Positions 25,059-63,772 of a stretch of 64,000 nucleotides of DNA are shown one piece after another. Position 1 is the stretch's first letter; each line of letters opens with the position of its first letter. The notes below the pieces were generated by a model. The model made no database searches. It was not told the origin of the DNA and saw only the letters and a program-made list of their open reading frames with translations. The position numbers were made by a program, and so were the translations under genes. Origin of the DNA: a virus; the IMG/VR virus record IMGVR_UViG_3300045974_000399, positions 17,908 through 81,907 of that record; one strand, 5' to 3'.

Positions 25059-25442
25059 TTACACTTTAGTAACATTTGGTTCCAGAGCAGATATATCTAT
25101 TGCGTACCCTTCTAGCAGTAATGCTAGGTTTTTTAACCGGGTGGCACGTATCCGATTAATCTTGTTTGTTACCCGGACAAGAGCCTTAGGGTTTATCTGA
25201 CTAGATACGCTGGCAAGATACCTATCGAAAGAAGCATTGAGTAAGGTTTTACCAGCATCCAGTATTCTCGCGGTTATGACGGAAGCGTCTATCTCTGGAA
25301 ATACTGTCAAGGTAAACAAAGGCTTTTCTGGCTTTACCTCTGTAATAGTATCCTCAGCATCGTCTGTTTCAATGACCTCAGACTCGTCTACAACTGTGTC
25401 TTCAGTGTCATCTGCAATTACCACAGCATTAACTTTACGCAT
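25059..25442 (-). CDS. Hypothetical protein with MR leader
   Basis: MRKVNAVVIA start. Confidence 0.55.
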   Translation of the reverse strand: MRKVNAVVIADDTEDTVVDESEVIETDDAEDTITEVKPEKPLFTLTVFPEIDASVITARILDAGKTLLNASFDRYLASVSSQINPKALVRVTNKINRIRATRLKNLALLLEGYAIDISALEPNVTKV

Positions 25443-25453
25443 CTCATCCCCCT

Positions 25454-25759
25454 TTATAGGCGTATACCCGCGATATCCTGCTCTATTTCATCGACAAGTT
25501 GTAAGCAGTCTGCTCTTACTTCCTTGCTTACGCTATCGCTGAGTTTAGAGAAAGCCGCGGTTATTGTTGTTACCTGCTTAATTGAGTATACCTTACCGAG
25601 TGCCCCAAGAACTTCTTCCTCGACCTCAGATATTACTTCGGTTACTAAACCGATTAACCCATTACAGAGGTCATCTGTGCTACCAAAGGTAGGTAGAGAT
25701 GTAAGATAAATACCGGTGTCTCCTCCTGCGGTCTCTTCTACAACTTGCGTCTTACGCAT
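25454..25759 (-). CDS. Hypothetical protein with MR leader
   Basis: MRKTQVVEETA start, AGGAG RBS. Confidence 0.55.
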   Translation of the reverse strand: MRKTQVVEETAGGDTGIYLTSLPTFGSTDDLCNGLIGLVTEVISEVEEEVLGALGKVYSIKQVTTITAAFSKLSDSVSKEVRADCLQLVDEIEQDIAGIRL

Positions 25760-25776
25760 AACTGGCTCCTTGTATG

Positions 25777-26676
25777 TTATTTAAGCTCAAAATCAATCTG
25801 CAACAGTGCCGCGGAATTACCAGAAGCCAGACGTATTCGGTCAAGGATGGATTTTACTCCAGCTTCTTCTTCAACCTGCTCACGGACGTACCACTCCAGG
25901 AATATGCAGGTGGCAGCGTCAGTTTCCCTAGCCAGGAAATAAAGGTCGCTTATCTTACGAGTAATCATCTTCTCGTGCTGTAATGCAGCCATGAAAAACT
26001 CTTCGAGACTACATGGAGCGGTAACGATGGCTGGTTGCTCAGGTATGAAGACCATCCATTGTTTATCGAGCAGAAACTTGAACATCCCATCTGCGTGCTT
26101 TATCTCCTCCGAGTACTTATCCTTGAAAAACTTCTCGGTTCCAAATAGCCCTCGATTGTTTGCTACTCCGCTAAGCACCCAGTATAAGTTAGCAGATGCT
26201 ATTTCGAGGCCAACCTGGAGATTGAGAAGATTGAGCAGCTCAACATTCGTGGGCGTGATATCCACAGTACACCCACACGGGTTGTATCCTTTTCCCATTC
26301 CTTCAGGGGGATTTAAGAATGGATTATCCAAAACAGGTTCCGGAGGTGCTGGCTCGGTCTCACAAACTGGAGCAGTGCACTCAGGAGCTGGCTCACATAC
26401 AGGAGCAGGTTCAGGACAAGTCTCACAAACTGGAGCAGGTTCAGGGTAGGGCACGTTATCAGTTATGAGTTCCTCGGGGACTACAGCCGCAGGTGTCTCA
26501 ATTACTTCCAGCCTTTCAGAAGCCTCCCGTAGCTCGTCCAGTGAAATCGGTCTTAAGCTTAGCGCTCCATCCTGCTCTGGGATATCACCCATGCTTGTAG
26601 GAGCAGTAACGAATACCTCTGCAGAGGAAAACTCTGCATCTCCGTATAAACCTTGCAGTATTGCTTTCTTCATCAT
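25777..26676 (-). CDS. Non-heme ferritin with long Pro/Glu/Cys-rich N-terminal extension
   Basis: LN.Q...E..S...Y, EE..HA, LQHEK.IT, DAAT..FLEWYV.EQVEEE ferroxidase motifs. Confidence 0.92.
   Translation of the reverse strand: MMKKAILQGLYGDAEFSSAEVFVTAPTSMGDIPEQDGALSLRPISLDELREASERLEVIETPAAVVPEELITDNVPYPEPAPVCETCPEPAPVCEPAPECTAPVCETEPAPPEPVLDNPFLNPPEGMGKGYNPCGCTVDITPTNVELLNLLNLQVGLEIASANLYWVLSGVANNRGLFGTEKFFKDKYSEEIKHADGMFKFLLDKQWMVFIPEQPAIVTAPCSLEEFFMAALQHEKMITRKISDLYFLARETDAATCIFLEWYVREQVEEEAGVKSILDRIRLASGNSAALLQIDFELK
26340..26450 (-). repeat. Imperfect tandem repeats encoding PEPAPVCE
   Basis: Recurrent caaactggagcag / ggagcaggttcagg units. Confidence 0.7.
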
Positions 26677-26682
26677 GCACCC

Positions 26683-27087
26683 CTATTTCTTCTGTGATAG
26701 TATTACTTCGTATATGAGGTTTGACAGGATCTTTCCCTGCTCAAGTAGCTTCTTATTACCTTTTGCGGCAGCCAGATTTATCAGTACGCCTGACTGTCTG
26801 TATCTCCTGGCTACATCCACTTTATCCCGATGTTCCAAGTAGTTTATTATTTGGTTCCGTTGAAAATCCGTAAGCTTTTTTAGGTCTTTCGGTAGATCTA
26901 CTTCAGGTAGTACATCAGATATCTCGTAGCTGAGTATTGGGGTTGCCCATGCTTCTGTGAATGTCTTCTGGGCAACGTTGGACCAAGGCTTACCCCTTCG
27001 ATCATAGAGGTCTTTGGCCCATTCTAAAACTTTGGCCCGAGTATACCCCTGTCTTTTAAGCTGGAGTATTTTGTCGTACAGCTTCAT
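26683..27087 (-). CDS. Hypothetical protein with shared N-terminal helical domain
   Basis: N-terminus aligns with 39407..40291 and 47282..48442. Confidence 0.6.
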   Translation of the reverse strand: MKLYDKILQLKRQGYTRAKVLEWAKDLYDRRGKPWSNVAQKTFTEAWATPILSYEISDVLPEVDLPKDLKKLTDFQRNQIINYLEHRDKVDVARRYRQSGVLINLAAAKGNKKLLEQGKILSNLIYEVILSQKK

Positions 27088-27097
27088 AAGCGCCTCG

Positions 27098-27532
27098 TCA
27101 TCCTGTTATTTTTAGAACTTTGAGGGCTATCGGGAAGATAAATGACTCGCCCCACGGAATCTCTTTTTCTGTGAGCTTGAAGGGTGGCAGCCCATAACGC
27201 GCTAAGATGTCTGGAAGAAAATCCTTCTCGAATATCTCCCAAAATCCGTAGATAATCCCAAGCTTTACCCCGAACTTCCTAATGCTAGTGGCAAGGGTTT
27301 CAGCTACATCCTTAAGGTCTACTCTACTTAAGGTATTTTCAGCTATTTCAACCATGGCCTTATACTTTATTTCCTTAGTGGGAAACTTCTTGACCATGTA
27401 CTCCCATATCTTAGGGAGAGCTTTAGCAAGGGCCAGGATAATGAATTTCTTTGCATTGTTAAGAAGTAGCTGCTTGACTTGAATGCTAAGAGCAACCTCT
27501 TTATGAGTATACGTACACCTTGCTACACGCAT
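27098..27532 (-). CDS. Hypothetical protein with MR leader
   Basis: AGGAGG RBS. Confidence 0.55.
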   Translation of the reverse strand: MRVARCTYTHKEVALSIQVKQLLLNNAKKFIILALAKALPKIWEYMVKKFPTKEIKYKAMVEIAENTLSRVDLKDVAETLATSIRKFGVKLGIIYGFWEIFEKDFLPDILARYGLPPFKLTEKEIPWGESFIFPIALKVLKITG

Positions 27533-27543
27533 CTGGATTCCTC

Positions 27544-27969
27544 CTATATTTCCCCTCGGTAAGGTGGAAATAGCATACTGGGGGTCTTAGCTTCATACTC
27601 AGGGAGAACGTCATCTTCCTTTGGCTTCATTTTCTTCTTTGCTTCAAGCTCAACTATCAGATCCCTAGGCATGTCTCGTATTTCATCTTCATGCAATGCC
27701 CCACAAAATAGCTTTACTTTAATCTGTCTAGCAACGTCACGGGTCTCAACAGGCAGTTCTACATCCATATCATCGTCTACTCTGCCCAAAGGCCGAATAC
27801 GATTTTTATTTCTGAGGTTACCTTTTTTTGTTGTAGGAAAATCTTTAACGTCATACTTAGCGTTATCGTTAGACGGGAGATCTCCATTGGACGGTGTGTT
27901 ATTAAACGCGGGACGAGGAACCATTGGAGTAGGGGTGTTATACGCTATAACTACCGAGATTATACGCAT
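27544..27969 (-). CDS. Hypothetical protein with MR leader
   Basis: MRIISVVIA start. Confidence 0.55.
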   Translation of the reverse strand: MRIISVVIAYNTPTPMVPRPAFNNTPSNGDLPSNDNAKYDVKDFPTTKKGNLRNKNRIRPLGRVDDDMDVELPVETRDVARQIKVKLFCGALHEDEIRDMPRDLIVELEAKKKMKPKEDDVLPEYEAKTPSMLFPPYRGEI

Positions 27970-28015
27970 GCTAGACTCCGAAGCCAGAGGGCATCATAAT
28001 TGACTATACCTAAAA

Positions 28016-28207
28016 TTATAAACTTTCCGTTTTTTCTTTCAGACCAAACTTCTTGTTAGTAGGGTTAACCCAATAGCTATCTGGGTTACTAATCCAGTCA
28101 TAATACTCGGTCATTGTAACATCTATTAAGTCGGACGCCTTAGAAAGTGCCGAAGTAACCCTGCCCTGTATCTCACCGGTAGTCAAGTCAAATTTTAAGC
28201 AGTACAT
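28016..28207 (-). CDS. Small protein, possible fibre assembly chaperone
   Basis: 63 aa, AGGAG RBS, last gene of fibre-like block; F...TGEI.G pattern. Confidence 0.4.
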   Translation of the reverse strand: MYCLKFDLTTGEIQGRVTSALSKASDLIDVTMTEYYDWISNPDSYWVNPTNKKFGLKEKTESL

Positions 28208-28215
28208 GTTTTCTC

Positions 28216-28815
28216 CTAAGGATCAAAGTGTATGGGATCTGCACCCAGTTTATAAACAAGCGCATTTATCTGGTAAAATCGCCTAAGCGTAATAATCGGA
28301 TTGTTTATCAGAGTAAAGGTATCCCAGTACAATGCCTTATACAATCCTGCTGGCCTAGGTGTAGAAAAATTTACCCAGTCTATTGTCTTGGTTAGATACG
28401 CATAATTGTGAGAGACATGGGTATACGCCAGCATGTATATGTTACCATTCACAAATATGTTAGGGCATGAACCAAACATATCAGGCAATTGCCTCTTCTC
28501 AAGCGGCTCCTCACTACTCATATCCACCTTCATCAGGTAAAACTTAGTATTTAAGGAATATATAACCGTCCAGACTTTTGGGCTTAGCTTCGCCCAAACC
28601 ATGCCTCCATATAAGCCTTGACCCATATAGTAGTCTAGACCAGCACTAGTGTCAAGTGCGTCTTGTGCCGTAACAGGTTCATACTTCTGTACCTTTGAGC
28701 GCAATGAGAAGTAATCTAGGTTTTTTAGTACCCAAATCTTTCGGTTGTCGCTAGTGCCATAGTCTCTACAGTCTACCGCCAGACCACCTGGCCCTGAGAT
28801 ACGTCTCTGGAACAT
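28216..28815 (-). CDS. Beta-rich virion protein
   Basis: Aromatic, beta-strand-rich; T.DW.NFS BNR-like motif. Confidence 0.45.
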   Translation of the reverse strand: MFQRRISGPGGLAVDCRDYGTSDNRKIWVLKNLDYFSLRSKVQKYEPVTAQDALDTSAGLDYYMGQGLYGGMVWAKLSPKVWTVIYSLNTKFYLMKVDMSSEEPLEKRQLPDMFGSCPNIFVNGNIYMLAYTHVSHNYAYLTKTIDWVNFSTPRPAGLYKALYWDTFTLINNPIITLRRFYQINALVYKLGADPIHFDP

Positions 28816-28819
28816 AAAA

Positions 28820-31800
28820 TCACCATGACCTTAGTAAATAAACATACGCCATGTAAAAATCTTTGTTCGCGTCACTTCTACTGAAATAGATACGACCAAG
28901 GAGTTCATCAAATATAACCACATTCGTCTGTAAAGTATTAGAGTATATATCCGTGATGCTAACAGCTGACGCAGGGGACAGTATCGAAAACTTATCCCCG
29001 ACACTGGGTGTAGACGAGAATGGGTCGCAGGTGAATAGCTTAAGAGTGCTATCGTAAGCAATTATCTTTCGTGTCTCACCATTCCACTTAAGGTAATTGC
29101 CTAGGTAGAAATTATACCCTTTTGCTACCTCTGTAGAGTCAGTTATAATTGATCCGGAGTCTATAACAGCTGATATGTTCTGATTCAACAGATAGTCGGT
29201 TAAGTATGCGTGATACCCTGTTGACTTATCTAAGAAATAAAATTCAGAGTCACCACCAAAATCAGCACGAAGCCACTTGTCCATGTGTAATGCTCTAGCT
29301 TCTATAGTGGTATAGGGTATCCAACTTACTGTTCCTGAGTTTATCTTGAAATTATTAAACCGTGTAGCAGTAGATGGAGTAGAACAATATATATTTACCC
29401 TCATGTCATTCCATACTTGCATCGTAGTTATACTAAATGATACCCAAGCTGAACTGGTGCTATTCCAGTAGTAACCTGTGAATATATTGGATGACCTAGC
29501 TAGTCTGAACTTGGTTGTTGTATCCGCAGTAACTACCTGAGTACCTACCTGAGATCCAGAAGCTAACCACTGATAAAAGGTAAACCGATGATTCTGTAGA
29601 AATACCCCAATAGCATATCCCGTCTTGACGTCTACAACCCTTAGACCAGACCAGTTAGTGGTTCCATCATTAGAAATGCTAGGAACGTCTATCTGAATAT
29701 CGAAGTCACCTTCCAAGCTATACACACTAGTACAAGACGCGGTCTGCCCTGCAGTAAACTGGAGAGCTCCGGCAGTTAGCAGTGGGGCAGTACCTGAAGT
29801 TGTCCATCTTGAGGTATTCGGCACTTGACCTGTACTGTCAGTAAAGTACTCATCCCCAGGTTCTACGTTCTGTGTTGACTGCGTCACAAGATCATAGGTT
29901 TCAAACATCTGACGGGCATCCGCAAAGTAACTGACAAGTCTAACCCCTGTTAGGTATTGCTGGTTGTCTTTTATGAAACCATTCTTAACCGCGCCAAACT
30001 CATACCGGTCGGTATTGGCAAACGTTAGATTTTCATTCAGTGGGTTGGGCTGACAGCGTATCTGGATCTCATCAAACATATCCTGCCAATCAGCATGAAC
30101 AGGTCGGCCACGCATTGTAAGCATGTTGGAAGTCCAGTCTACTCTAACCCACTTTTCGTAAACGGTATCCCAAGAGTATCTAGAGTAGTCCATCTCGTGG
30201 TGACTGTTAGGGTACCCCTTCCAATCGTTGTAACTATTACCGGACCACCACGTGCCATGACCAAAAGCGATGATATGCTTCTTATTGATTACCCCTGTAG
30301 CCATCCGAGCACCCTCATTGTATGAAGATAAAGGCAGTGGGTACTGCTGACAAGCCCATGTAACCAGGGTAGGCTCATACACATATATTCTATCCACTTT
30401 TATGCTATCATTATTACTTCCCTGATACTCATCATATGCGGTGGTTGTGCTGTTGTCGAATAGGAAAGCTGAGGTAAAGGTTTGGTCAGGGTTATCATGA
30501 AAGTACCCACACCGAGTTGAAGTATTGTTTACATGTGGCCGTTGACTGAGAATGGTAAAGTCGGCAGGGTCAATTGTAACCATCTTGGTCTGACCAATAA
30601 CGTGTAGATAGTTGTCTATTGTCCGTATAACTGAACCTGCTCGGCTAACACGCCTGCAGTCATTTACTACCTTGGTGGTAAGATTTATGTAGTTTACTCG
30701 TTTGTCTACCTCACCAATGTTTACCCGATAGTCTAATACTTTGAACTCGTATCCTTTTTCGTGAGATTGATCTTTCAAGAAAGCAGCAATTCCCACATAT
30801 AGGTCACCCGCTATAGTCTGAGTGCTGGTACCAATATTTGTCCAAGTACAATCACCATCAGGAACATATAACTCATCCAGACTGTAAAAAGCTTGTACCA
30901 CGTTCGCCGAATCTCGGGTAAGCTTGAGATGTATAACTTGGAGCGTGTTAGAAGTCCTGACCGAAGGGTCCTCATAGTGAAGCTCTATACTTGATAAGCA
31001 TCCAGGATAACTCCCAGGATTATGATAGAAAGAGTCATACGCAGATAGACGATAGTAAGAATATGCGTCCACGTTGTTGAAATATCTGTAATTCGTGAAT
31101 CCTGCTGTAGTAGGCTCCCACTCTTGCGAAGCAACAGAATCCAGGGTTACCCAGGTTGTTCCATCCATACTACCTGACAAGGTCCAGGAATACAGCTGAT
31201 AGCTACCTGACCTATCAGTAGGGTTAACCAAAGCGTACTTGTTTATTACCGTAGGAGCGTTAAATTTCCACTGTGTATACCCACCTGTGCTGTTAACCTG
31301 CCAGTAGTCGTTATTAGACGTCCAGGCGTTTGCAGGACCAGACAGATTACCTGAGTTATAGGCACCATTAGCTGTGATGGCTAAATTCGAGGTATTAACA
31401 AGGCCGCTCTTAACTACCGCTGTAGCATCGGTAGTTGATACTCCAGATACGGTAGACAATGCCTCTGCCACCATCTGGGTGCCTACCCTGTTCATAAGCA
31501 CGGATTTATGCGTGTAGTTATTATTGGTGGGCGTAGGTATCGCTACTAAGCCAATACGCTGGTTTAGGTGCCGGGCATCGTACTTTAAGGCCATTGTAAC
31601 TTCAAAGGGGCCTGAGCGAAGACGCTGCGCCAAGAAGGTAGGGTGAAAGACAGTTCCTCCTATATTTCCACCGTTAGGCTGAATATATAGACTACTATCA
31701 GCCATACGAAAGAATCCACACCGATGCTGTATCAAAGACCAGTTATTTACTGTATAGGCGTTGAAGTTGGCAATACCGTTGAACTGACTTCGGTCTTGAA

Positions 31801-33463
31801 TGCCAATGCGCTCCATAATTATCATGGAGCTATCTTGACACAGAACAATTTCGTCAGTATCAGCCAAATAATTTCCCCAGCTATAATACTTGCAGAGACC
31901 ATCAGACCGCTCTACTACACCTGAAGAGAAAAGCCATAAGTCAGGGGAATGTATCCAGCTTGGCGTAAATATATAGGAAACTAGGTCAAGAATTGAAACC
32001 AAGCACTCATTTCTATGCCAGATGAGCATTGTCTTATTGTCAAGTATGATAGCGTGATGCGCTACATAAGGTGCAGTAGCAACCTTAGTCTCAACTAGAG
32101 TGGCAACGGTACCATCACCTGAAACATAACTGTAGATGTCTCTTTGATTATTTCTAGCATCAATGGCAAAGAACCTGTCGAAATAATCAACTACGGTATC
32201 ATACACAATATACAAGGCTTTTCTTGACCCTGGAAGGGCAATGTTACCACCACCTGTATCTAGGTTTTCAAGACAAGTGAATAGTCTTTCATCCCAGTTA
32301 TATCGAGTGGAAAAAACTACCCAGTCTCTAGATCCGAATTTTCCAAACAAAGTCTCTGCATGGACAACGTTTGACCAATCGGTATCATAGTAATGATGAG
32401 CGGGTCTTAAAATCCAGTCCTCTTTCTGAACCCAGTACAAAGCGGTGCTCATCCCAGCTATGTCATAGAGGTTTTCACCTGCGTCAATATATAGTGAGAA
32501 CTTGGCCCTGTTCATATCCAAAGGGGTAAAGGGATAATTCTTAGCCCTAACTTGAAATGCTTTCATGTACCCTACAGTAGGATTATTCAGGTCATAAAAG
32601 TCAATGGGGTTAGTCGCGGTTCCATCCGTTAGTCTCCAGCGTTTACCCCATACCCTACCAAGAGTGCTAAAAGGGAAGTACTTAATCGGTCCGAAGTAGT
32701 CAAAGGAAATAGACTTCCAGCCCCAGCCAACCCAGCTACCTAGGTTGTCCTTGCTACCAAGGCCAATAATTCCAGTGTCATATCTGAGATGTGTCCAGTC
32801 GAAAGACAGATCTCCAACGTTACCTACGGTGGATCCATACCACTGCCACTCTAGAGTAGTATTAGCAGACTCATCTGGCATTATATCATTTGAGAGGATT
32901 GAATCAAAAAGACGATATGAACTATACCTACTACCATCTCGGAACAACTGCCAATAAAGCATCCAGTTAACCGTGGTGCCATAGCCATAGTTCTGACGAG
33001 AAGTGGTTACATAGATATAGTAGAATACGGTTAGGGTTGTTTTGTCATCTTGAACTAAAGGAGTGGTAAGAACAGTGTAACAATACGCGGAAGTACCAGA
33101 ACCGCTGGTAGCTATACCAATTGTATTTACCGTTCTAACGGTACCTACCGCAGGGGCTAGAAAGGTAGTCTGAAACTTCCAGCGCTTATATGAATCCTCA
33201 CGAGATGGCCAAAGCGCATTGGCTATAACCACGTTAGGTATAACTGTGTCGGTGTACTTTGGTAAAACAGTATTTGTGCTAAGGCATACATAAGGTATAG
33301 CATTACCATTACGCATTGAGTTACCCAATCTACGGGTTCCCTCATCTAGCCAGAGGTTAGGCTGGGTGTGGTCAAATATGGTTTCACCATCACGCGTCGC
33401 TACCACCCTGACGATACCCTTGGCAGAAAAACCAGCCATACTAAATAATACTTTTGGATCCAT
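28820..33463 (-). CDS. Large fibre/spike-like virion protein with discoidin (F5/8C)-like and lectin-like domains
   Basis: 1547 aa; SWTLSGSMDGTTWVTLD and F.N..AYSYYRL (discoidin); GDFDIQID...FRLARS (ConA/LamG-like). Confidence 0.7.
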   Translation of the reverse strand: MDPKVLFSMAGFSAKGIVRVVATRDGETIFDHTQPNLWLDEGTRRLGNSMRNGNAIPYVCLSTNTVLPKYTDTVIPNVVIANALWPSREDSYKRWKFQTTFLAPAVGTVRTVNTIGIATSGSGTSAYCYTVLTTPLVQDDKTTLTVFYYIYVTTSRQNYGYGTTVNWMLYWQLFRDGSRYSSYRLFDSILSNDIMPDESANTTLEWQWYGSTVGNVGDLSFDWTHLRYDTGIIGLGSKDNLGSWVGWGWKSISFDYFGPIKYFPFSTLGRVWGKRWRLTDGTATNPIDFYDLNNPTVGYMKAFQVRAKNYPFTPLDMNRAKFSLYIDAGENLYDIAGMSTALYWVQKEDWILRPAHHYYDTDWSNVVHAETLFGKFGSRDWVVFSTRYNWDERLFTCLENLDTGGGNIALPGSRKALYIVYDTVVDYFDRFFAIDARNNQRDIYSYVSGDGTVATLVETKVATAPYVAHHAIILDNKTMLIWHRNECLVSILDLVSYIFTPSWIHSPDLWLFSSGVVERSDGLCKYYSWGNYLADTDEIVLCQDSSMIIMERIGIQDRSQFNGIANFNAYTVNNWSLIQHRCGFFRMADSSLYIQPNGGNIGGTVFHPTFLAQRLRSGPFEVTMALKYDARHLNQRIGLVAIPTPTNNNYTHKSVLMNRVGTQMVAEALSTVSGVSTTDATAVVKSGLVNTSNLAITANGAYNSGNLSGPANAWTSNNDYWQVNSTGGYTQWKFNAPTVINKYALVNPTDRSGSYQLYSWTLSGSMDGTTWVTLDSVASQEWEPTTAGFTNYRYFNNVDAYSYYRLSAYDSFYHNPGSYPGCLSSIELHYEDPSVRTSNTLQVIHLKLTRDSANVVQAFYSLDELYVPDGDCTWTNIGTSTQTIAGDLYVGIAAFLKDQSHEKGYEFKVLDYRVNIGEVDKRVNYINLTTKVVNDCRRVSRAGSVIRTIDNYLHVIGQTKMVTIDPADFTILSQRPHVNNTSTRCGYFHDNPDQTFTSAFLFDNSTTTAYDEYQGSNNDSIKVDRIYVYEPTLVTWACQQYPLPLSSYNEGARMATGVINKKHIIAFGHGTWWSGNSYNDWKGYPNSHHEMDYSRYSWDTVYEKWVRVDWTSNMLTMRGRPVHADWQDMFDEIQIRCQPNPLNENLTFANTDRYEFGAVKNGFIKDNQQYLTGVRLVSYFADARQMFETYDLVTQSTQNVEPGDEYFTDSTGQVPNTSRWTTSGTAPLLTAGALQFTAGQTASCTSVYSLEGDFDIQIDVPSISNDGTTNWSGLRVVDVKTGYAIGVFLQNHRFTFYQWLASGSQVGTQVVTADTTTKFRLARSSNIFTGYYWNSTSSAWVSFSITTMQVWNDMRVNIYCSTPSTATRFNNFKINSGTVSWIPYTTIEARALHMDKWLRADFGGDSEFYFLDKSTGYHAYLTDYLLNQNISAVIDSGSIITDSTEVAKGYNFYLGNYLKWNGETRKIIAYDSTLKLFTCDPFSSTPSVGDKFSILSPASAVSITDIYSNTLQTNVVIFDELLGRIYFSRSDANKDFYMAYVYLLRSW

Positions 33464-55009: not shown

Positions 55010-55021
55010 TACGCATACTCC

Positions 55022-55252: not shown

Positions 55253-55432
55253 TTAGTGGAAATTAGTTACCAATATCAGAAGAAAAGCAGTGGCTACAGC
55301 TAGGTATTCCGGATATTGATTGAGCAATCTTTGGACATTAGCACCACGCCTAAACAGCGGTGTAGTAACTATTGACCCAAGTTTATCCAAGGCTGGTCCA
55401 AACACTCTATCCACTTTCGTAAACAAGGCCAT
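55253..55432 (-). CDS. Small membrane-anchored protein
   Basis: C-terminal hydrophobic helix, AAGGAG RBS. Confidence 0.45.
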   Translation of the reverse strand: MALFTKVDRVFGPALDKLGSIVTTPLFRRGANVQRLLNQYPEYLAVATAFLLILVTNFH

Positions 55433-55465
55433 TTGGTATCTCCTTTCGTGTAGGATATGCGTCAT

Positions 55466-55858: not shown

Positions 55859-55949
55859 GTGCCCTCCTTTCCCCTAAAATTACGATTCTATCGGGTTTCC
55901 ACTAACCAAAGAAGGCCCCCACCCACTCGGGGTAGAGGCCTATCTACTG

Positions 55950-56177
55950 TTACTTCTTTCGGCCTTCTGGCCAAATTTTCTCTTCCGTCAGAAGATATCC
56001 CTTGTTAGTCAGACCAACCAGGGTAACGTACATCCGAGTTAGAGCCCTCTCCGCGGAGAGGTGTTTCTGGTCGATCTTGTAGAGCAATACTCGCATCTCG
56101 GCTACTGCTTGCTCGTACACATCCTGCTTACTTGGCTGTGGTTCAGATGGCGAAACAACTTTTTTGGTCGGTGGCAT
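55950..56177 (-). CDS. Hypothetical protein
   Basis: 75 aa ORF. Confidence 0.45.
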   Translation of the reverse strand: MPPTKKVVSPSEPQPSKQDVYEQAVAEMRVLLYKIDQKHLSAERALTRMYVTLVGLTNKGYLLTEEKIWPEGRKK

Positions 56178-56222
56178 GATGAACCCCCTGCTTTGGATTT
56201 GCCTTCACCACCTTATTTACAG

Positions 56223-57038
56223 TTATTTTTTCGCGGTCTTCATGGTCTTCTTTGCAATCATACGCTGAGGAGCAATCTTGTTGAGTAGGGTCCGGAGTTT
56301 TTCGGCACGAGCTTCTTTCTTACCCATTGCCTGCTGATAGGCAGCATTAGCATCGTCAATCGTTTTCTGAACGGTGCTCTTGGCAACCTGGATCTCGGCC
56401 TGGAGTTTCTTAAGCTCCGCCTGGAGCGCCTTGATCTTGTCCTTGGGGTACTTCTCGTCCTGAGCGGTCTTTCCCTGCAGGGGCTTAAGGTACTCGTTAA
56501 TCAACTTGACGTCCACTTTGGGAGCCACTTTGATCTTCTTGGCCGTCAGCTGCTCCTTGATGATCCTTTGAGCTTCTTTCAGACATTTCTCCGCGGTAAC
56601 CTTGGGATCAGCCTTGTACGCGGCGGAAATCATCTTGTCCACCAGAGGACGCACCTTTGCCCATGCCCGCATATCCTCGGTCATAGGTTTGTCTACCTTA
56701 CCTACATTCCGCTTCTTACTAGCGGCTGCCGCATCTTTAGGGGCCTTGGCTGCCGCAGGTTTAGGGGCTTTCCACGCTTTGCCACTCAACTGCTTGTACT
56801 TACCCAGGATATCGGAATGATCTCCGGTAGTTGGGATAACCACAGCCATTAACTTCTTTACCTGGTCAGAAAGACGACCTTCTCGCGTTTCCAGGGCCTC
56901 ACGGGTATCGTCATCAACGTCCCCATCCAGCTTGCCTTGAACTCTTTCCCAGTCGGATAGGGCTTTGTTAAGCTCCCTCTCCGTTACCGCAGGGCTGGGC
57001 TTCTTTACGGCACTTGTTTCCAGCATTACCTTTCGCAT
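56223..57038 (-). CDS. Lys/Ala-rich coiled-coil putative internal head protein
   Basis: Start MRKVMLETSA at 57038 with GAGGAG RBS. Confidence 0.55.
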   Translation of the reverse strand: MRKVMLETSAVKKPSPAVTERELNKALSDWERVQGKLDGDVDDDTREALETREGRLSDQVKKLMAVVIPTTGDHSDILGKYKQLSGKAWKAPKPAAAKAPKDAAAASKKRNVGKVDKPMTEDMRAWAKVRPLVDKMISAAYKADPKVTAEKCLKEAQRIIKEQLTAKKIKVAPKVDVKLINEYLKPLQGKTAQDEKYPKDKIKALQAELKKLQAEIQVAKSTVQKTIDDANAAYQQAMGKKEARAEKLRTLLNKIAPQRMIAKKTMKTAKK

Positions 57039-57051
57039 TGTTCTCTCCTCT

Positions 57052-57513
57052 TCATAGTGAGTTATGGAATTCAGCCTGTCTGGCTTTGGTTTCGTTGTCA
57101 TATTGCAATCGCCGTTTCTTCTCTGCTCTTTGGAACGCCCTGATGGCTGTAACGGTGTTCCCAACAACTACCTCAAGCTCGGTGATAACGCCCTTCAAAG
57201 TGAGACCAGGCGCCAAGGGTTTGGGCGGTCCTATGTTGGAGTTAGTCTGAGTGGTCTCCTGCAACTGGAAGACATAGCGCCCATTCCGGTAGCTAATGGA
57301 CACAGCTATGTTCTGCGCAAGCTGGACCGTGAGGTTAGACACTCCGTGACCCAGCTGTCCACCTTTGGAGATATACTGGACGCCCTTTATATCCTTCTTG
57401 TTCAGGGCGTCATGTAGTTGCTCCAGGGCCTTGCCTCCAACGTTCTTTGCTTTGGGCATAACCATCGACATTAAATTCTCTACTTCCTTCTTTGCCAAAG
57501 TTGTACATCTCAT
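57052..57513 (-). CDS. Hypothetical protein with MR leader
   Basis: MRCTTLA; AGGAG RBS. Confidence 0.5.
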   Translation of the reverse strand: MRCTTLAKKEVENLMSMVMPKAKNVGGKALEQLHDALNKKDIKGVQYISKGGQLGHGVSNLTVQLAQNIAVSISYRNGRYVFQLQETTQTNSNIGPPKPLAPGLTLKGVITELEVVVGNTVTAIRAFQRAEKKRRLQYDNETKARQAEFHNSL

Positions 57514-57516
57514 CTT

Positions 57517-57963
57517 TTATTCTCCTTTGGGAGTGACGACCAGTTCGTAGCGGTTTTCCTTATCCACTACTTTAAGGGCCCGTATGTTTCCACGGATGAT
57601 TGCCAGTATTTTCTTGATCTCCAGCCGTGGGTTCTTTTTCTGAAGTTTCACTTCGGGCTTCGTTCGGATGATACCCAACGTCCGTGCGTACTTACGGCCA
57701 GCAGGCGTGATCTTGATCTCACCAGGGATGGGCCGCGTCTTCTTCGCGTACTCTTTTTTCACCAGCCATTGCAGGGCCTGCTGGACAGTCTTGGACCTGT
57801 CACGGACCGAGTGAATGCCCATGCTGTAGCCTCGGCCGCTGACCAAGTCCGCCAGGATCTCTCGTATTGCTTTGTCCATCTTTGGACTGCCACCCAACTG
57901 GCGTGTATTCACCTTAGGGGTGGGATCTACTTTAGGCGTAGCGGCCAAGACTACTTTTCGCAT
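57517..57963 (-). CDS. Basic protein, possible winged-helix
   Basis: AL.WLV.K.Y........ITPAG wHTH-like end. Confidence 0.45.
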   Translation of the reverse strand: MRKVVLAATPKVDPTPKVNTRQLGGSPKMDKAIREILADLVSGRGYSMGIHSVRDRSKTVQQALQWLVKKEYAKKTRPIPGEIKITPAGRKYARTLGIIRTKPEVKLQKKNPRLEIKKILAIIRGNIRALKVVDKENRYELVVTPKGE

Positions 57964-57976
57964 GTTAGGCTCCTAT

Positions 57977-58456
57977 TCAGTCGAGTTGTCCTTCAATTTC
58001 TTCTGGGGTTATCGTTCGGTAATAGTCACCCGGGCACATTAAGACTTCCCCGTCAGTCGTGTACCCTACACCAAACGGGTCGTCCTTTGGTAGGTGATTA
58101 AGTTGGGCATACAGCTCAATGTTCACCACAATCTGCTCTGGCTCAACGTCTCTCTCAAGCACGACAGGGTTGTCCATATCATCGGAATAGCTTGCGGCTA
58201 CCTCTGGGTCGGTAGTCCAACTTTGAAGAGGAACCTTCCTGGTCTTAACTTCAGTACCTTTACGCAGAGCTCTGACCTGTGAGTCCGTTAGGTTTTGAGC
58301 TCTGTATAAAGGCCCTTTGGCCGAACGATACTTAGCTGCAACCATATTCCGGTTTATGCGGTTGGGACTATCCGGGTCTTCCAGCCAAGCTTTAATCAGC
58401 TCATACAGTTCATCCTCTGATGCCTGCTCTTCAAACCGAATAGTCAATTTCCGCAT
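57977..58456 (-). CDS. ADP-ribosyltransferase-like protein
   Basis: LYRA, SWTTDPEVA..Y, DGEV: R-S-E pattern; start MRKLTIRFEEQAS at 58456. Confidence 0.6.
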   Translation of the reverse strand: MRKLTIRFEEQASEDELYELIKAWLEDPDSPNRINRNMVAAKYRSAKGPLYRAQNLTDSQVRALRKGTEVKTRKVPLQSWTTDPEVAASYSDDMDNPVVLERDVEPEQIVVNIELYAQLNHLPKDDPFGVGYTTDGEVLMCPGDYYRTITPEEIEGQLD

Positions 58457-58461
58457 GATGG

Positions 58462-58998
58462 TTACTCCGGCATCATGAAGTCGTAGATGTCCATTGTTGC
58501 ACCAGTACGATTGATATCCGACTGCAGATGAATTTGAATCTGGCAAATACCCGCGGGAACAGTGAACTTCAACTCCTGGAAGTTGGTGTAAGGCGCCGCG
58601 GGTTTTCCAGGGAATGGAGCATTCCACAGTTTACCCACACACGATCCACAACCCAGCATATCGGTAGATATATACACCGCTAGAAACTGGTTGCTGAGTT
58701 TCAGACAACGTGCTTTTAGCGTAGCCTGGCCACCCTTGTTAGTGGCGGGTAACACCTTAGACAGCATGTAGGTATTGCCGGTATTACTACCGACAGGCAT
58801 GTTCGGGGGCTGCGGATCATTCCAGTAGTTACCTGGACGCGCTGACAGTCCCACTACATTGTTCGGACCCAGTTGTGGGAAGGAAAATGTTGGGGGGTCT
58901 GCCACAGGCTTCGCAGGTTTGCACAACTGGTTCCACGTGCCATTGTTGAGGGTCAAGTTCCAGCCATTGAGGTCTGCCTGTCCGAATTGTGATTTCAT
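58462..58998 (-). CDS. Beta-sandwich-like hypothetical protein
   Basis: Trp/Pro/Gly-rich; F.VPAG...IQI and YDF end resemble jelly-roll CBMs. Confidence 0.4.
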   Translation of the reverse strand: MKSQFGQADLNGWNLTLNNGTWNQLCKPAKPVADPPTFSFPQLGPNNVVGLSARPGNYWNDPQPPNMPVGSNTGNTYMLSKVLPATNKGGQATLKARCLKLSNQFLAVYISTDMLGCGSCVGKLWNAPFPGKPAAPYTNFQELKFTVPAGICQIQIHLQSDINRTGATMDIYDFMMPE

Positions 58999-59090
58999 CC
59001 TAGTCTCCTCGTTTATGCAGTTAGCTGCGGTTTATAGGGGACATCTATGGCGCTCTAGTGAGCTGGAACCCACTAGAGCACCCGGGTTAA

Positions 59091-61508
59091 TCATGCTAGA
59101 TATTTATTGGCGGATATGGTGCAGGATTCCGTTCCAGCGTTCCACGTGGCGAACACGTCACCGCTAAGCTTGGAAGTATACACATAAGGCTGGCCACGCT
59201 TCTGACCGGGCTTTGAGGTGAACTCGGACATGCCAGCACGCTTCAGAACCGACTCAAAGAGGTAAGAGGTCTCGAACGTGCCCTTGCCAGAAGAGTAAAT
59301 GCCACCGCTGCCATTGAGCACACGTATCCCATCCAGATTGGCGATTATCTTATCGAGCCCGTAGGTAGCAGTGGGTTGCACTGTAGCCTTAGGCGCGACT
59401 GACCGGGGCGGCTTCGTGCCCAGGTATTCGATAGAGTTCTTGAGCCCCAGCTTCTGGATGATCTTGTCCATCTTAGGTTTCTTGCCAGGTGCCAGGATGC
59501 CCTCGACTTCACGCCCGCCACGCAGCCAGATAGATGTATCATCCCCGAAGTCCACCCGAAAGTCCGATCCTTCTTGTTCGGAGTCCTGGATGTCGTAAGC
59601 CTCCATAATGTCCTCAAGAAAGTCCGCGGCGTCCACAATCGGCTTGGTGATTGACTGCTTCGGCTTGTCCTCATGCTTACCTGGGACATTGTAGGCCAAC
59701 ACCCTCCCGACCTTCTTGGGGTAGTCATAGGAGAAGCCCAGGAGACCAAGGTTAGGGTCTGTCCACTGATACATTGACCAGACTGCTTTGGTCATCCCTG
59801 GATCACTTGAGCCACGGCCTGCGGTTATCGGAGCTTTGAGCTTATCAACTACAAAGCTCCGAACTACCTCAGCTTGACCTCTAGTCAGCGTGAGGTTAAC
59901 CGTGTCTACAGCGGTAGCGCTATTGTGCGTGGACACTTTCAGCGCGCCTTTGAGGCCCATCGTCTTAGCCCACGCTGCCAGATCGGCTTCGGTGCAGAAT
60001 GGAGTCTTACTGGTCTTGACCACCGGAGCCGCTGCAGCAGGTACTTCCGGAGCAACTACCGTCCGGCGCTCTTTGGTGGGCAGCGGAGGAACATCGCCTT
60101 CAACACGTACACGCTTGGCAGGTGAATCGCCGTAGACGTAGCCGCCCATATCCAACCATGAGGCCAGATCGCCAATCCACTGGCTGGCTTTGTACGAATG
60201 AAGGGGTGACCCTGGAGTTGAAGAGCCGTTGCCGTTGCCTACCCCACCGAACTGACGTGACCGAAGGAACCACTCAGGGCCAGACCGGTTGGTGCCCTGT
60301 GAGTAGCCTGTGGTGTAGGAGAACTCTTCCGGGAAGGTGTAAGAGCCCTTCTTGTTGTAGAACACCAACGACCAGATGGGAGACGTGTGGCGGTCGCCCG
60401 GTTGATCTTTAACTACCTTGGACTTGAATGTCTGCCCTTGAATCTGATACTCAAACTTGTTGGCGGTGCTGGAAGGACGAGTGCGACCTGGCGGTCGAGA
60501 AGGTCGGCCTGGACCAAGAACTTTCTTTACCTTCGGCTCGTGCCCAATAGGAGTGGTGCGCTCATCTACTACCTTAGCGGACTTCCCACCTTTCTGGGTT
60601 ACGGTTACAAAGAACGTTGTCTCACTGACCCAGAACTTAACCGATAGGTCAGGCGAAGTCCAAATGCGCTTGTTCTTCTCGGTGAAACCCTGCTTCGTCA
60701 GAAATACCTTGAACTTAGCCAGTTCCTTTTCGCCGAACAAGGCGACCTGCTTGATGAAGGTCCCCTCCGGAGCTGAAGCCCAAGGATGGAACCCCAGACC
60801 CTGCAGCTTGGTGGTTAAGTTACGCATGCCGATTGTGTCTGTTGAGGGTCCTTTTTTCACCGCAGGAGCAGGTCCCGGACCACGAGAACTCTTGGTGTAG
60901 GTTATCTCTGAATTTAAGCCCGCTTTCTTAATCGCGGGTTCAACTACATCTTCAAGAGATGCATCCAGAGAACCACCTACGGTTGTGCCATCCACTTTGA
61001 TTGTCTTACCGAGGATGTTCAAACCGTTTTTACCCTTAGGGGTTCCAACAGCGTCCAACGGGGTCAATACTTTGTTAAGGATCGTGATGAGCTTGGCCCA
61101 GCGAACTGCAGTTACTTTCGACCACTCTTTGGTAAAAGCGTTAACCGCGGGTACCGCCTTGGCAGGAGCAGGCGTATTGTCAGTAGCAGCGTTCAGTTTC
61201 TTGAGGAACCGTAGCCACGCTTTCATGTCGTAGCCGGCGATGCTGCTGGACTTGAATGACCCTGCTTTGAGGAACTTGATCTCGTGCTTGACACGCTTGC
61301 CAGCTACCTTGAGCGTGAACTCCAAGTTGTACCCTACGTCTTTGGCCCGGACACCCATCTCGGTCTTCAGGAACGCACGAATAGTATCTCGGTCAGTCGC
61401 AGGCACACCCTTCCCTTTACTTGTGCCAATCTTAAGCACCCTGGGCGCGGCAGCAGGGGCTTTAGCACTCTCTTCCTTCATCTTCATTGATACCGATACT
61501 ACTCTCAT
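59091..61508 (-). CDS. Large modular Lys-rich putative internal head protein
   Basis: Leader MRVVSVSMKMKEESA; small domains joined by K/P/A linkers. Confidence 0.55.
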   Translation of the reverse strand: MRVVSVSMKMKEESAKAPAAAPRVLKIGTSKGKGVPATDRDTIRAFLKTEMGVRAKDVGYNLEFTLKVAGKRVKHEIKFLKAGSFKSSSIAGYDMKAWLRFLKKLNAATDNTPAPAKAVPAVNAFTKEWSKVTAVRWAKLITILNKVLTPLDAVGTPKGKNGLNILGKTIKVDGTTVGGSLDASLEDVVEPAIKKAGLNSEITYTKSSRGPGPAPAVKKGPSTDTIGMRNLTTKLQGLGFHPWASAPEGTFIKQVALFGEKELAKFKVFLTKQGFTEKNKRIWTSPDLSVKFWVSETTFFVTVTQKGGKSAKVVDERTTPIGHEPKVKKVLGPGRPSRPPGRTRPSSTANKFEYQIQGQTFKSKVVKDQPGDRHTSPIWSLVFYNKKGSYTFPEEFSYTTGYSQGTNRSGPEWFLRSRQFGGVGNGNGSSTPGSPLHSYKASQWIGDLASWLDMGGYVYGDSPAKRVRVEGDVPPLPTKERRTVVAPEVPAAAAPVVKTSKTPFCTEADLAAWAKTMGLKGALKVSTHNSATAVDTVNLTLTRGQAEVVRSFVVDKLKAPITAGRGSSDPGMTKAVWSMYQWTDPNLGLLGFSYDYPKKVGRVLAYNVPGKHEDKPKQSITKPIVDAADFLEDIMEAYDIQDSEQEGSDFRVDFGDDTSIWLRGGREVEGILAPGKKPKMDKIIQKLGLKNSIEYLGTKPPRSVAPKATVQPTATYGLDKIIANLDGIRVLNGSGGIYSSGKGTFETSYLFESVLKRAGMSEFTSKPGQKRGQPYVYTSKLSGDVFATWNAGTESCTISANKYLA

Positions 61509-61529
61509 ACGCCTGTCTCCTTTAACCGC

Positions 61530-62144
61530 TTAATAGTATTGACCTTGATTCTTTTCGGTATCGAAATAAGCAAGTCTCTCACTCCGCTTGCTATGCGGGT
61601 TTACAACCGAGTAGACCCAAGAGTCCATCGACCCGAACCAGACTTTGGTGACCTCATTCGGATCGTAGACGCTGTGTATCTGCTTCTCCAGATCTTCTAT
61701 CCTGGTGTAAACCGCTTGCTTCTTGGATGAGGCTGTTTCACCTGAGCCAAGCGTAAAGGTAATGTCCAGGTTACGAAGCTTTATATCTTCGTGCGTCCGC
61801 AACTGGTTGAGATAATACAGATCGAGCTCACTCCCGCTGATACCTTTGGGTGCGGGTTTCCAGTGCGGCTCTTCCTCGATTAGGCCCTTCAGTCGAACCC
61901 AATCAGCTGCCTTGATCTCACCTGACCAGCTATAGGGTCCCAGCTGCTTGAGATGAGCATTGGTGTTATACATCTCATCAGTCAGGTAGAATACCTGCTG
62001 CATTATGGCAGTTGCCTTCCTGCGGGAGAAATCTTCCCCGGACTGATTCTCAACACCGGAACGCAGCGCCTCAATAACCTTGGGGGTTGTCTCAACTTGA
62101 AACTTAAGGGATGCCGCTGCTAGGGCTATGTGCAAGGTTCTCAT
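61530..62144 (-). CDS. Hypothetical protein, paralog of 62160..62888
   Basis: MRTLHIALA; shared LK..GP..W.GEI...D and L.Q.RTHE. Confidence 0.6.
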   Translation of the reverse strand: MRTLHIALAAASLKFQVETTPKVIEALRSGVENQSGEDFSRRKATAIMQQVFYLTDEMYNTNAHLKQLGPYSWSGEIKAADWVRLKGLIEEEPHWKPAPKGISGSELDLYYLNQLRTHEDIKLRNLDITFTLGSGETASSKKQAVYTRIEDLEKQIHSVYDPNEVTKVWFGSMDSWVYSVVNPHSKRSERLAYFDTEKNQGQYY

Positions 62145-62159
62145 TCCATCTCCTTTTTG

Positions 62160-62888
62160 TTACCGAAGTTCAAATTTAGCTTTGACCCAGTCAAGGTCAA
62201 GCGCTTCATGAGTACGGAACTGGTCCAGTATCTCCAGAGTGGCTGCGTCGCCTTTCAACTTAGGCGACCTCTCCCAACCCTGCTTGTCAAGATACTCTTG
62301 AAACTCCAGCATATCCGAGCCGCCGATTTCACCTGCCCACCGATTGGGCCCTGCCTTCTTAAGGTTGGGGTTAATGGTTGGCCCGTCATCAAAGGCAAAC
62401 AGATCAGTAACCAGCTCGATAGCTGTTGCTTCATCCGCCGAGTTATCCTCGTCCATATCAGAGATAGCGGACCTTATCTCTTCAATTGTCTCTGGCGGAA
62501 CAGTTATGTAGAACTTAACTGCAGGACCGGCTTTGCGTGGGGATACTTTCGTCTTGGATTTAGGGGCGACCTTACCCTCTAGCGTTGCCATCATTGCCAG
62601 AAGACCAGCATCGCCCGTTATCACCCCTACGTCCCTGTAAGAGTCGGCTATCCCCCGGAACTCCCGCACTTGCTTGAAGTGAGTAGTAGCGGTCTTGATA
62701 TCCTTCTTCTTGAGACACAGCAATCCCGCAGAAAACTCTTTGAGAATACCCTGCTTATCAGGAGGGCTTTTGAACCTGGCCTTCGCTGCTCTTAGGTTCT
62801 TTTCCAGAGCAACAATCAGCGCGGGCAAGAGTGGAGAATCAGCTATAGCAGCATCGTCCCCGGCTAGTGATATGTGCAGGGTTCTCAT
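62160..62888 (-). CDS. Hypothetical protein, paralog of 61530..62144
   Basis: MRTLHISLA; shared C-terminal domain. Confidence 0.6.
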   Translation of the reverse strand: MRTLHISLAGDDAAIADSPLLPALIVALEKNLRAAKARFKSPPDKQGILKEFSAGLLCLKKKDIKTATTHFKQVREFRGIADSYRDVGVITGDAGLLAMMATLEGKVAPKSKTKVSPRKAGPAVKFYITVPPETIEEIRSAISDMDEDNSADEATAIELVTDLFAFDDGPTINPNLKKAGPNRWAGEIGGSDMLEFQEYLDKQGWERSPKLKGDAATLEILDQFRTHEALDLDWVKAKFELR

Positions 62889-62890
62889 GA

Positions 62891-63772
62891 CTAGACCACC
62901 TCGTAGCGCAGACCGTTACCTTCGGCTGCTCTCTGGATAAAATCCTTGTCGAGCTTGCTGCTGAGCTCTCCAGTTACCGCACCGTTTTTGGTGTATATCG
63001 TTCCGTCGTCACCGAAGTCGATCTTAAACCCACCACCGGGCCGCATATTAACTTCGCACTCGAACTCATTCTCAATAGTTTTGACAAACTTCCGAGTAGT
63101 AGGAGTACCTTTCGGGGCGGGAACAGCAGGTGCGGCAGGCACACGCCGTGCTTTGGGAGCCATGATACCTTTGCTAAGCAGGTCCATGGAGAAGTTCTTT
63201 AGGGCTACGCTGCCAGATCCGACCTTGGTCTCATAGTGAACAGTGTCATTCACAATGGTAACCTGCATCGGGCTATTTCCCTTGACGATGTACCCTGCGT
63301 ACTGACCCTTGAAGCTAGGGTCCTTAGTGTTATCCACAAACCCGGACTCGGTAAGCTGAGCCACTACGCTTTTGAGCAGGCGGGCGTTAGCGGACTTCAC
63401 CATCTTCGAAGGTTTTACTTCAGTAGTGGCAGGACGGTTGTCTGCTTTGCCAACCTTAGGCACCAACTTCTCTGCTTTGATGGGCTTGATCTTGACCCGG
63501 GTAATCCAGTGTGGGATGCTCTGTGCTTTCCCATAAGGAAGGAACGTAGCCGCCCAGTGCTTAACTTCGCTGGGGTGGTCTTTCGGAGCGGTAAGAATCT
63601 GGCCATTGCCGAACTTCTTCCACGTCCAGCCTGTGGCCAAGCAGTAGGTTACCAGCTCATCCAGCTGCTTCACAGTCAGTCCCAGTTGCCTGGCGCTCTG
63701 CTTCTTCAACAGCGTGAAGTCAATCTTGGCTACAGCCGCTGTCTCTACACTTGATAAGGTTACTCGTCTCAT
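62891..63772 (-). CDS. Modular Lys-rich putative internal head protein
   Basis: MRRVTLSSVETAA; DFGDD module shared with 59091..61508. Confidence 0.55.
   Translation of the reverse strand: MRRVTLSSVETAAVAKIDFTLLKKQSARQLGLTVKQLDELVTYCLATGWTWKKFGNGQILTAPKDHPSEVKHWAATFLPYGKAQSIPHWITRVKIKPIKAEKLVPKVGKADNRPATTEVKPSKMVKSANARLLKSVVAQLTESGFVDNTKDPSFKGQYAGYIVKGNSPMQVTIVNDTVHYETKVGSGSVALKNFSMDLLSKGIMAPKARRVPAAPAVPAPKGTPTTRKFVKTIENEFECEVNMRPGGGFKIDFGDDGTIYTKNGAVTGELSSKLDKDFIQRAAEGNGLRYEVV

Follow-up and report, generated by a model that had tools for sequence, protein, structure and literature searches.

Why should nearly two dozen otherwise unrelated phage proteins begin with the same short peptide? 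The question is raised by a 64,000-nucleotide stretch of IMG/VR virus record IMGVR_UViG_3300045974_000399 (the window), which spans bases 17908-81907 of the 81,907-bp record; coordinates prefixed w count from the window start. A preliminary description of this DNA had noted an N-terminal leader on about 23 genes, described it as a basic start followed by a beta strand and then Ala or Ser, and proposed that it loads its bearers into the phage head in the manner of the capsid-targeting sequence (CTS) of T4 internal proteins. The answer favoured here, with a probability of roughly 55%, is close to that proposal. The peptide (the tag) is probably a lineage-specific, T4-style capsid-targeting tag, and its long form would be removed by the prohead protease after a Glu residue.

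The record is a single contig without a terminal repeat and is about 31% complete according to CheckV. All window genes, and with them every feature given a w coordinate below, lie on the minus strand, and all gene starts are predictions. Judged from its sequence, the window is about one third of an uncultured jumbo phage that is distantly related to Pseudomonas phage PaBG. In its portal protein it shares 46% identity with PaBG and about 39% with jumbo phages of Erwinia and Dickeya. Alcaligenes phage Afa-NA1, whose portal is 39% identical, was set aside as a comparison, synteny being absent. Two IMG/VR records have portals 63-65% identical to that of the record under study (G000). These are G001, which is 294,944 bp long, rated complete, circularly permuted and has 351 confident gene calls, and G002, a 44.5-kb fragment. 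Two metagenome contigs, L031 and L033, encode proteases that are 66% and 54% identical, respectively. The nearest relative is a 98-kb contig with a protease (P0002) 83% identical to that of the window. The DNA of the head region had no match among 50,697 phage records.

The first point to settle is whether the shared start is real. All 22 starts listed earlier are present, as is a further one at w15524, and a Shine-Dalgarno-like AGGAG or GGAG lies 4-11 nt 5' of each tagged start. In five genes (starts w58456, w57038, w52270, w45475 and w41499) the longest open reading frame begins further upstream. The starts chosen for these five in the preliminary description hold up, each having a ribosome-binding site and abutting the preceding gene. 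That at w45475 is also backed by orthologues in two relatives, which likewise begin MKIKRV. When scored with the pattern ^M?M[RK].[VILTFAMC].[VILFMAYC], 25 of the 95 genes of the contig fit, compared with 2.6% of the windows starting at internal Met residues of the same proteins (binomial p 1.6e-18). The fits are concentrated between w25059 and w63772 (22 of 51 genes), with three among the 44 genes elsewhere on the contig (Fisher p 5e-5), where one chance match is expected. Chance was rejected as the origin of the shared start.

Two further candidates concern the nature of the signal. Signal peptides of the Sec, Tat and lipoprotein types have a basic N-region followed by a hydrophobic core of about 10 or more residues. 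A signal peptide of any of these types was rejected, as hydrophobic residues in the tag alternate with polar ones and charges appear by position 8-12. What if the constraint instead lies in translation initiation, with a certain sequence being preferred after the start codon irrespective of what the peptide does? Well-expressed bacterial genes often have basic, A-rich second and third codons, and the third codon positions of the tagged starts do show a mild preference for A. However, the Arg at position 2 is written with four different codons (AGA 8, CGA 5, CGT 5, CGG 1). Over the first 30 nt it is the second codon positions, as far as codon 6-8, that hold the information, which indicates selection on the peptide rather than on RNA or DNA. 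In addition, the ribosome-binding sites of untagged neighbours in the same operons are just as good, and there is no RNA rationale for a Glu-Thr-Ala at residues 10-12. An RNA-level motif was rejected, and a requirement of the mRNA or of translation initiation is very improbable.

Untagged genes are interspersed among the tagged ones, and therefore the tag is not an operon-wide property. They encode a CorA-type Mg2+ channel (w48489-49490), a stand-alone response-regulator receiver domain (w55466-55858), an MmcB-like protein and a SprT-like protein. The absence of the leader from CorA and the receiver domain had been pointed out before, and it is so found although both are encoded among tagged genes.

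Could the tagged genes simply be one family that was duplicated, with bodies that diverged beyond recognition and a start that has no targeting role? Tandem tagged paralogues do exist (w62160/w61530 and three G001 genes at 233.8-236.1 kb), as do tandem arrays of small tagged genes (G001, 270.0-271.6 kb). However, once the first 20 residues are removed, the 88 tagged proteins of three phages form 79 groups that BLAST does not link, 71 of them singletons, and the window contains only two weak paralogous pairs (w62160/w61530 and w59091/w62891). Independent folds are tagged, namely an Acb1 2H phosphoesterase, a calcineurin-like phosphatase, a NUDIX protein and an ADP-ribosyltransferase (ART), and these belong to families that are otherwise untagged. 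Orthologues occur both with and without the tag, and where it is kept conservation is stronger in the tag than in the body. MKIKRV-I--RE, for instance, is retained in proteins with 31% overall identity. Common descent is improbable on these grounds.

The tag looks instead like an addition to complete domains. Pfam domains begin beyond it, with Acb1 aligned from residue 15 and the metallophosphatase from residue 16, and for most of 150 Acb1 representatives the alignment begins at query residue 13-16. In the AlphaFold model of the Acb1-like protein (pLDDT 93), residues 1-15 have low confidence and no secondary structure. The G001 Acb1 orthologue is untagged. The G002 orthologue of the metallophosphatase has an N-terminal extension too.

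Over 84 tags the consensus is M-[RK]-[KIT]-[VIL]-x-[VIL]-x-[ILVF], and the tags come in two forms. The long form has 10 residues and ends hydrophobic-x-Glu, after which come Thr and then Ser or Ala. Examples, with an arrow at the putative cut, are MRRVTLSSVE↓TA, MRRVTVSIQE↓TA and MRKLTIRFEE↓QA in the window and MRKITVRFTE↓TSA in G001. The short form, MRKVV[IL]A[SGA], lacks Glu. The commonest residue at tag position 10 is Glu (16 of 84), and about half of the tags have a Glu at position 7-13 followed by T/S and then A/S, which matches a junction in the portal protein. The start pattern described earlier stands, but its "then A/S" is loose and an ending of Glu followed by T/S-A/S is better defined.

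Where, then, might the tag be cut? The phage encodes a predicted prohead protease (w35867-36604; PHROG 18299), and the sole confident match of its structural model (pLDDT 85) is T4 gp21 (5JBL, probability 1.0). A phmmer search with the protease against PDB sequences returned noise only, and it took the fold search to reveal the match. Among 63 homologues His117 and Ser174 are invariant, with a spacing like that of the gp21 pair H85/S140 (PMC12991175). gp21 cuts after the Glu of I/L-x-E (PMC12991175) and gp245 of SPN3US after A-x-E, with Ser at P1' (PMC12991175, PMC10052503). All characterised gp21-type proteases cut after Glu (PMC9026906, PMC10052503, PMC12991175). The portal protein (w36788-38647; PHROG 16240) has RMIE↓TSA at residues 34-40, ahead of its conserved body, and all portal relatives have a Glu just ahead of that body. 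The junction reads R-[ML]-[IV]-E↓T-S in G000, G001, G002 and L031, and E↓A in remoter phages including PaBG. Thus the residues that follow the Glu vary in step with the tag. The preliminary description had placed the cut after Ala or Ser. Because the characterised enzymes all cut after Glu and the portal E↓TS is conserved, a cut after Glu (hydrophobic-x-E↓T-S/A) is likelier.

The protease itself may hold another clue. Its N-terminal GKMVTYSCAS resembles the short tag. A motif near the N-terminus, [GN]-[KR]-x-[VCA]-[VAT]-Y-[SA]-[SCA], is found in the proteases of exactly the tagged clade and is close to the R-K-V-V-[IL]-[AS]-S of short tags, whereas remoter proteases lack it.

A likely further substrate is the acidic 567-aa protein encoded at w23160-24863, just upstream of the major capsid protein gene. 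It is likely to be a scaffold or core protein, with a Cys-rich N-terminal part, a stretch of about 200 aa that is nearly pure Asp/Glu and a conserved C-terminal domain. It contains four E-[TS]-[AS] sites; FKE↓TAE is kept in G001, where a second junction is retained as E↓IAS. These sites fit a scaffold cut by the protease. The PaBG counterpart is annotated as an ATPase and looks more like a scaffold or core protein. The 364-aa major capsid protein (w21247-22341) is 74% identical to that of G001, and its position and N-terminus match PaBG gp080, the "major head protein". Both it and the likely scaffold lie outside w25059-63772, the span given in the preliminary description.

Might a host enzyme remove the tag instead of the phage protease? 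The host cysteine protease Prp trims ribosomal protein L27, and in Staphylococcus phage 80alpha it acts on capsid and scaffold proteins as well. The hydrophobic-hydrophobic-Ala-Ser/Gly at the end of the short form is loosely like the L27 site, F-F-A↓S; the core of the Prp/L27 motif is L-N-L-Q-F-F. However, this core is missing from the tags, and the phage encodes a gp21-type protease with whose clade the tag co-varies. A Prp-like host protease is the least probable of the explanations weighed here.

The distribution of the tag in relatives bears on its partner. It recurs in G001, G002, L031 and L033, in all of which the protease is at least 54% identical, and was not found in PaBG or in six IMG/VR relatives with a portal identity of 42% or less. 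About 50 of the 351 confident gene calls of G001 are tagged. They cluster at 125-138, 228-239 and 258-276 kb, the last cluster holding terminase, portal and protease, and there are 20 adjacent tagged pairs where 7 are expected. G002 carries its tags between portal and protease and has none from 24 kb on, and in L031 and L033 tagged genes adjoin the protease. Across the five phages the densest clusters are found between terminase, portal and protease.

This clustering has to be set against the idea that the tag serves as a docking strand for a different common partner (a phage chaperone, the lumen of the tail or baseplate, a membrane assembly site or an intracellular phage compartment) and that its likeness to a cut site is incidental. 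A short amphipathic beta strand is a generic docking element, and half of the tags lack Glu. Moreover, the tail and baseplate operon of G001 ends in the tagged block at 125-138 kb, and a baseplate protein of the window is tagged. However, the densest clusters surround head genes in all five phages, the tag end matches the portal junction in the tagged clade only, and the cargo is basic, like known internal head proteins. Head genes are also the sole candidate partner that co-varies with the tag. Docking onto another partner is therefore possible but rather unlikely.

What would a capsid-targeting tag carry? Among the tagged proteins of the window, domains were recognized in an Acb1-like protein, a calcineurin-like phosphatase and a DUF4116 protein, and the rest are mostly orphans. 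The 168-aa Acb1-like protein (w45486-45992) matches Pfam PF23474 (E 9e-21) and begins with the 13-residue tag MRVLTITLAKAAP. Its HxT motifs, H52-x-T54 and H124-x-T126, are invariant or near-invariant among 73 homologues. By fold and motifs it is a predicted 2H phosphodiesterase of the Acb1 type, which acts against the cyclic-oligonucleotide-based antiphage signalling system (CBASS). A word-based homologue search with it returned only itself. Two Acb1-family proteins, P0131 and P0111, start MKVLTATTVETA... and MRIQISLSKGSIVE..., respectively, and these starts are like long-form tags before the G-x-Y-x-x-V core. No relatives of tagged P0131 were found in the IMG/VR scan or the metagenome scan. 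The calcineurin-like metallophosphatase (210 aa; w40304-40936; Pfam Metallophos, E 2e-14) starts MKVIRALASIE↓TR. The cargo list proposed earlier is thus borne out by Pfam for Acb1 and the phosphatase. Its ParB-like and ART-like members were not confirmed in the window, ParB_N and ART-PolyVal not being found by Pfam in this contig.

Tagged cargo of G001 includes proteins with ART-PolyVal, NUDIX and KMPT-N domains and one that resembles a nucleotidyltransferase. ART-PolyVal and KMPT-N are known from proteins that are injected with phage DNA (PMC5512222, PMC7824862). The tagged proteins of G001 are basic (median pI 9.0 vs 6.05, p 1.5e-5), and tagged proteins are in general small (median 145-187 aa) and single-domain.

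How does this compare with known systems? The T4 CTS is the 10-residue MKTYQEFIAE, which ends I-A-E; targeting by it depends on residues 4 and 7, and its processing on residues 8 and 10 (PMC8442874, PMC9026906). As in T4, a short N-terminal peptide is found on unrelated, non-essential, fast-evolving and mostly basic proteins. The long form likewise has 10 residues and an M-[KR] start, and its position 8 is hydrophobic and its position 10 Glu (PMC9026906). The predicted model of the prohead protease has the gp21 fold, and the cargo includes counter-defence or host-modifying enzymes, the G001 ART being reminiscent of Alt. Two hallmarks of a T4-type CTS, a shared N-terminal peptide on unrelated bodies and a protease of the gp21 family, are found. 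There are clear differences, too. Unlike the T4 CTS, the tag has an alternating, beta-strand-like pattern and Arg at position 2, its P1' and P2' residues are Thr and Ser/Ala where T4 has Ala, and it has a second, Glu-less short form. A third of a genome already contains at least 22 tagged genes and a complete genome about 50, compared with a handful in T4, and the lineage is related to PaBG and is not T4-like. No homology to the T4 CTS or internal proteins was detected, the consensus M-R-K-V-x-[VI]-x-[FI]-x-E being compared with MKTYQEFIAE and PHROG and Pfam giving zero matches.

A second comparison is with phiKZ, 201phi2-1 and SPN3US, which are also jumbo phages with a gp21-type protease, an N-terminal propeptide on the portal and many head proteins (about 50 in SPN3US). 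Proteases of the phiKZ/SPN3US type (gp175/gp245) cut after Glu at A/S/G-x-E and favour Ser at P1' (PMC10052503). However, the propeptides of these phages mostly have 111-254 residues and do not form a shared portable tag, whereas the tag has 7-13 residues and is common to many proteins, unlike a propeptide of that kind. The P3 residue is Ala, Ser or Gly there and mostly F, I, V, Y or M here. In SPN3US about 80% of the head proteins are uncleaved, and they have no common leader.

Polyvalent proteins (Iyer et al. 2017, PMC5512222) offer a third parallel. They share with the present set ART-PolyVal, KMPT-N, SprT-like peptidases and hydrolases of nucleotide signals, and their presumed purpose is delivery with the DNA. 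In contrast, each of those giant polypeptides combines 2-15 domains, whereas here the proteins are single-domain and each is separately tagged. The arrangement can therefore be regarded as a disaggregated counterpart of the polyvalent proteins. We found no description in the literature of a tag of this kind outside T4-type phages, and found no data on proteolysis or N-termini in the PaBG paper.

The proposal of a T4-like tag for head loading and processing, with the cut moved to the Glu, thus draws on the gp21 fold, the add-on nature of the tag, the clustering with head genes, the portal junction and the basic cargo of G001. In this scheme, the basic start and beta strand (M-[RK]-x-hydrophobic-x-hydrophobic-x-hydrophobic) of a newly made protein would dock onto the assembling prohead core. 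Candidates for the docking partner are the protease, the acidic scaffold-like protein and the inside of the shell. The gp21-type protease would then cut long forms after the Glu, before Thr/Ser-Ala/Ser, and the mature enzyme would remain in the head and enter the host with the DNA. The short form (MRKVV[IL]A[SG]) may target without being removed. The cargo would be a fast-changing set of small, often basic proteins.

Several observations weigh against this scheme. About half of the tags, including that of Acb1, have no Glu within the first 20 residues, and cleavage of those is therefore unexplained. E-[TS]-[AS] is not depleted within the mature parts of the tagged proteins, so the motif alone cannot define a cut site. 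The trend towards basic pI is not significant in G000. Tagged and untagged genes are mixed in operons, and position alone therefore proves nothing. The resemblance between protease and tag is confined to a short motif and could be coincidence. The contig represents only about 31% of the genome, and the case is built from genes, models and analogy in an uncultured lineage. Finally, one tail gene bears the tag. This is the gene at w14586-15524 for a baseplate protein (Pfam T4_baseplate), which starts MRKILIAS and whose place in the set is doubtful. Its G001 orthologue is untagged and about one match outside the block would arise by chance, so the tag of this gene may be a coincidence.

A bolder version of the capsid-targeting idea, which we put forward tentatively and think may well be wrong, is that the PaBG-related lineage has evolved a general import code. 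Any basic beta-strand tag of 7-13 residues would then suffice for loading into the head and delivery with the DNA, with the protease bearing the same strand and the cargo riding its docking site. If this were true, dozens of enzymes for counter-defence and takeover would reach the cell ahead of phage gene expression, among them the CBASS-signal-destroying Acb1, an ADP-ribosyltransferase, a NUDIX hydrolase and phosphatases. If the tag does load proteins into the head, with or without so general a code, about 20 to 50 enzymes would be shipped with the DNA, far more than the few known for T4, and such pre-delivered counter-defence would change the view of early phage-host conflict. The tag would also make it possible to predict virion-borne effectors of uncultured giant phages from sequence only, and would provide a natural, transferable short peptide for loading foreign proteins into large capsids.

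The tagged genes of the window vary considerably in size and in the ending of the tag. At the upper end, the 293-aa product of w62891-63772 begins with the long form MRRVTLSSVE↓TAAV (Glu10) and is a weak paralogue of the 805-aa product of w59091-61508, the largest cargo, which starts MRVVSVSMKMKEE↓SAK. A Protein Atlas search with the latter gave nothing usable. The gene call in the ESM Atlas begins this 805-aa protein at Met8, which hides the tag, and automatic annotation may systematically miss or truncate such leaders. Between these two genes lie a paralogous pair, w62160-62888 (242 aa; short form MRTLHISLAG) and w61530-62144 (204 aa; MRTLHIALAA, with FQVE↓TT at residue 18). Next come w57977-58456 (159 aa; MRKLTIRFEE↓QAS, Glu10), w57517-57963 (148 aa; short form MRKVVLAA), w57052-57513 (153 aa; MRCTTLAKKEVE) and w56223-57038 (271 aa; MRKVMLE↓TSA). 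They are followed by w54455-55009 (184 aa; MRHLALAFAE↓TK, Glu10) and w53989-54429 (146 aa; MRRVTVSIQE↓TAA, Glu10). For the ten tagged proteins of w53989-63772, Pfam and PHROGs gave nothing usable.

The 558-aa DUF4116 protein (w52280-53956) starts MRVTRLRYRE↓HS, and its G001 homologue aligns from residue 73 only. IMG/VR scans with this protein and with the 805-aa cargo found zero relatives. Further down are w51941-52270 (109 aa; MRVLKVE↓CS), w50962-51921 (319 aa; MKIHRLTME↓ISA) and w50087-50482 (131 aa). The last has a variant tag, MLVRQVGVVTA, in which position 2 is not basic; it resembles the MTIRQVALAS found beside the protease in contig L037. Adjoining the Acb1-like gene is w45221-45475 (84 aa; MKIKRVAITSS), for which the G001 and G002 proteins begin MKIKRV too. 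Then follows w40936-41499 (187 aa; MRVTRYRILS), whose G001 and G002 orthologues are tag-like at the start and 36-38% identical. At the lower end are w27544-27969 (141 aa; MRIISVVIAY), with a promoter-like TAATTTTAGG 49 nt upstream, w27098-27532 (144 aa; MRVARCTYTHKE↓VALS), w25454-25759 (101 aa; MRKTQVVEE↓TAG) and w25059-25442 (127 aa; MRKVNAVVIAD). Beside them, w25777-26676 encodes a ferritin-like domain (Pfam E 2e-25) behind a 148-aa extension with the tag-like start MMKKAILQGL. This extension is missing from the 180-aa G001 orthologue.

Other shared N-termini occur in this group of phages. In contig L042, from a remote relative (positions 11808-13570), four consecutive small genes after the protease gene start with another shared peptide, x-[KR]-[VL]-x-A-R-L-x-E-[TE]-A. 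The L042 protease is 44% identical and fused into a 593-aa protein. This hints that lineage-specific tags may be a wider habit. Within the tagged clade itself, a second shared N-terminal module of about 50 aa, with zero Pfam matches, heads several different proteins per genome, including a SprT-like protein. It is found in the window at w39407-40291, w47282-48442 and w26683-27087, in G001 at 230417-231412, 271907-273250 and 274276-275388, and in G002 at 10895-12184 and 15129-16202. The full module, M-x-L-S-x-x-I-x-K-x-K-x-K-G-x-S-K...G-E-R-W-T...K-Q-x-x-F-D-x-x-W, was aligned from w39407-40291, the first and third of the G001 genes and the second of the G002 genes, and the others have its first 20-25 residues in common. 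The module may be a further targeting domain.

Two further features of the region deserve mention. A promoter-like [CT][GA]TAATTT[TG]AGG occurs at about w55882, w43978, w38691 and w28018, 24-49 nt upstream of the genes for the receiver domain, an intein endonuclease, the portal and the tagged protein starting at w27969, respectively. A looser variant lies ahead of w63772 and w8041. In the terminase region (w41499-45005), the large terminase is split by an intein into three open reading frames. These encode the N-terminal part with the intein N-half (Hint), a free-standing DUF7487/HNH-type endonuclease, and the intein C-half with the remainder of the terminase. In G001 and G002 the terminase is a single uninterrupted open reading frame of 707-710 aa.

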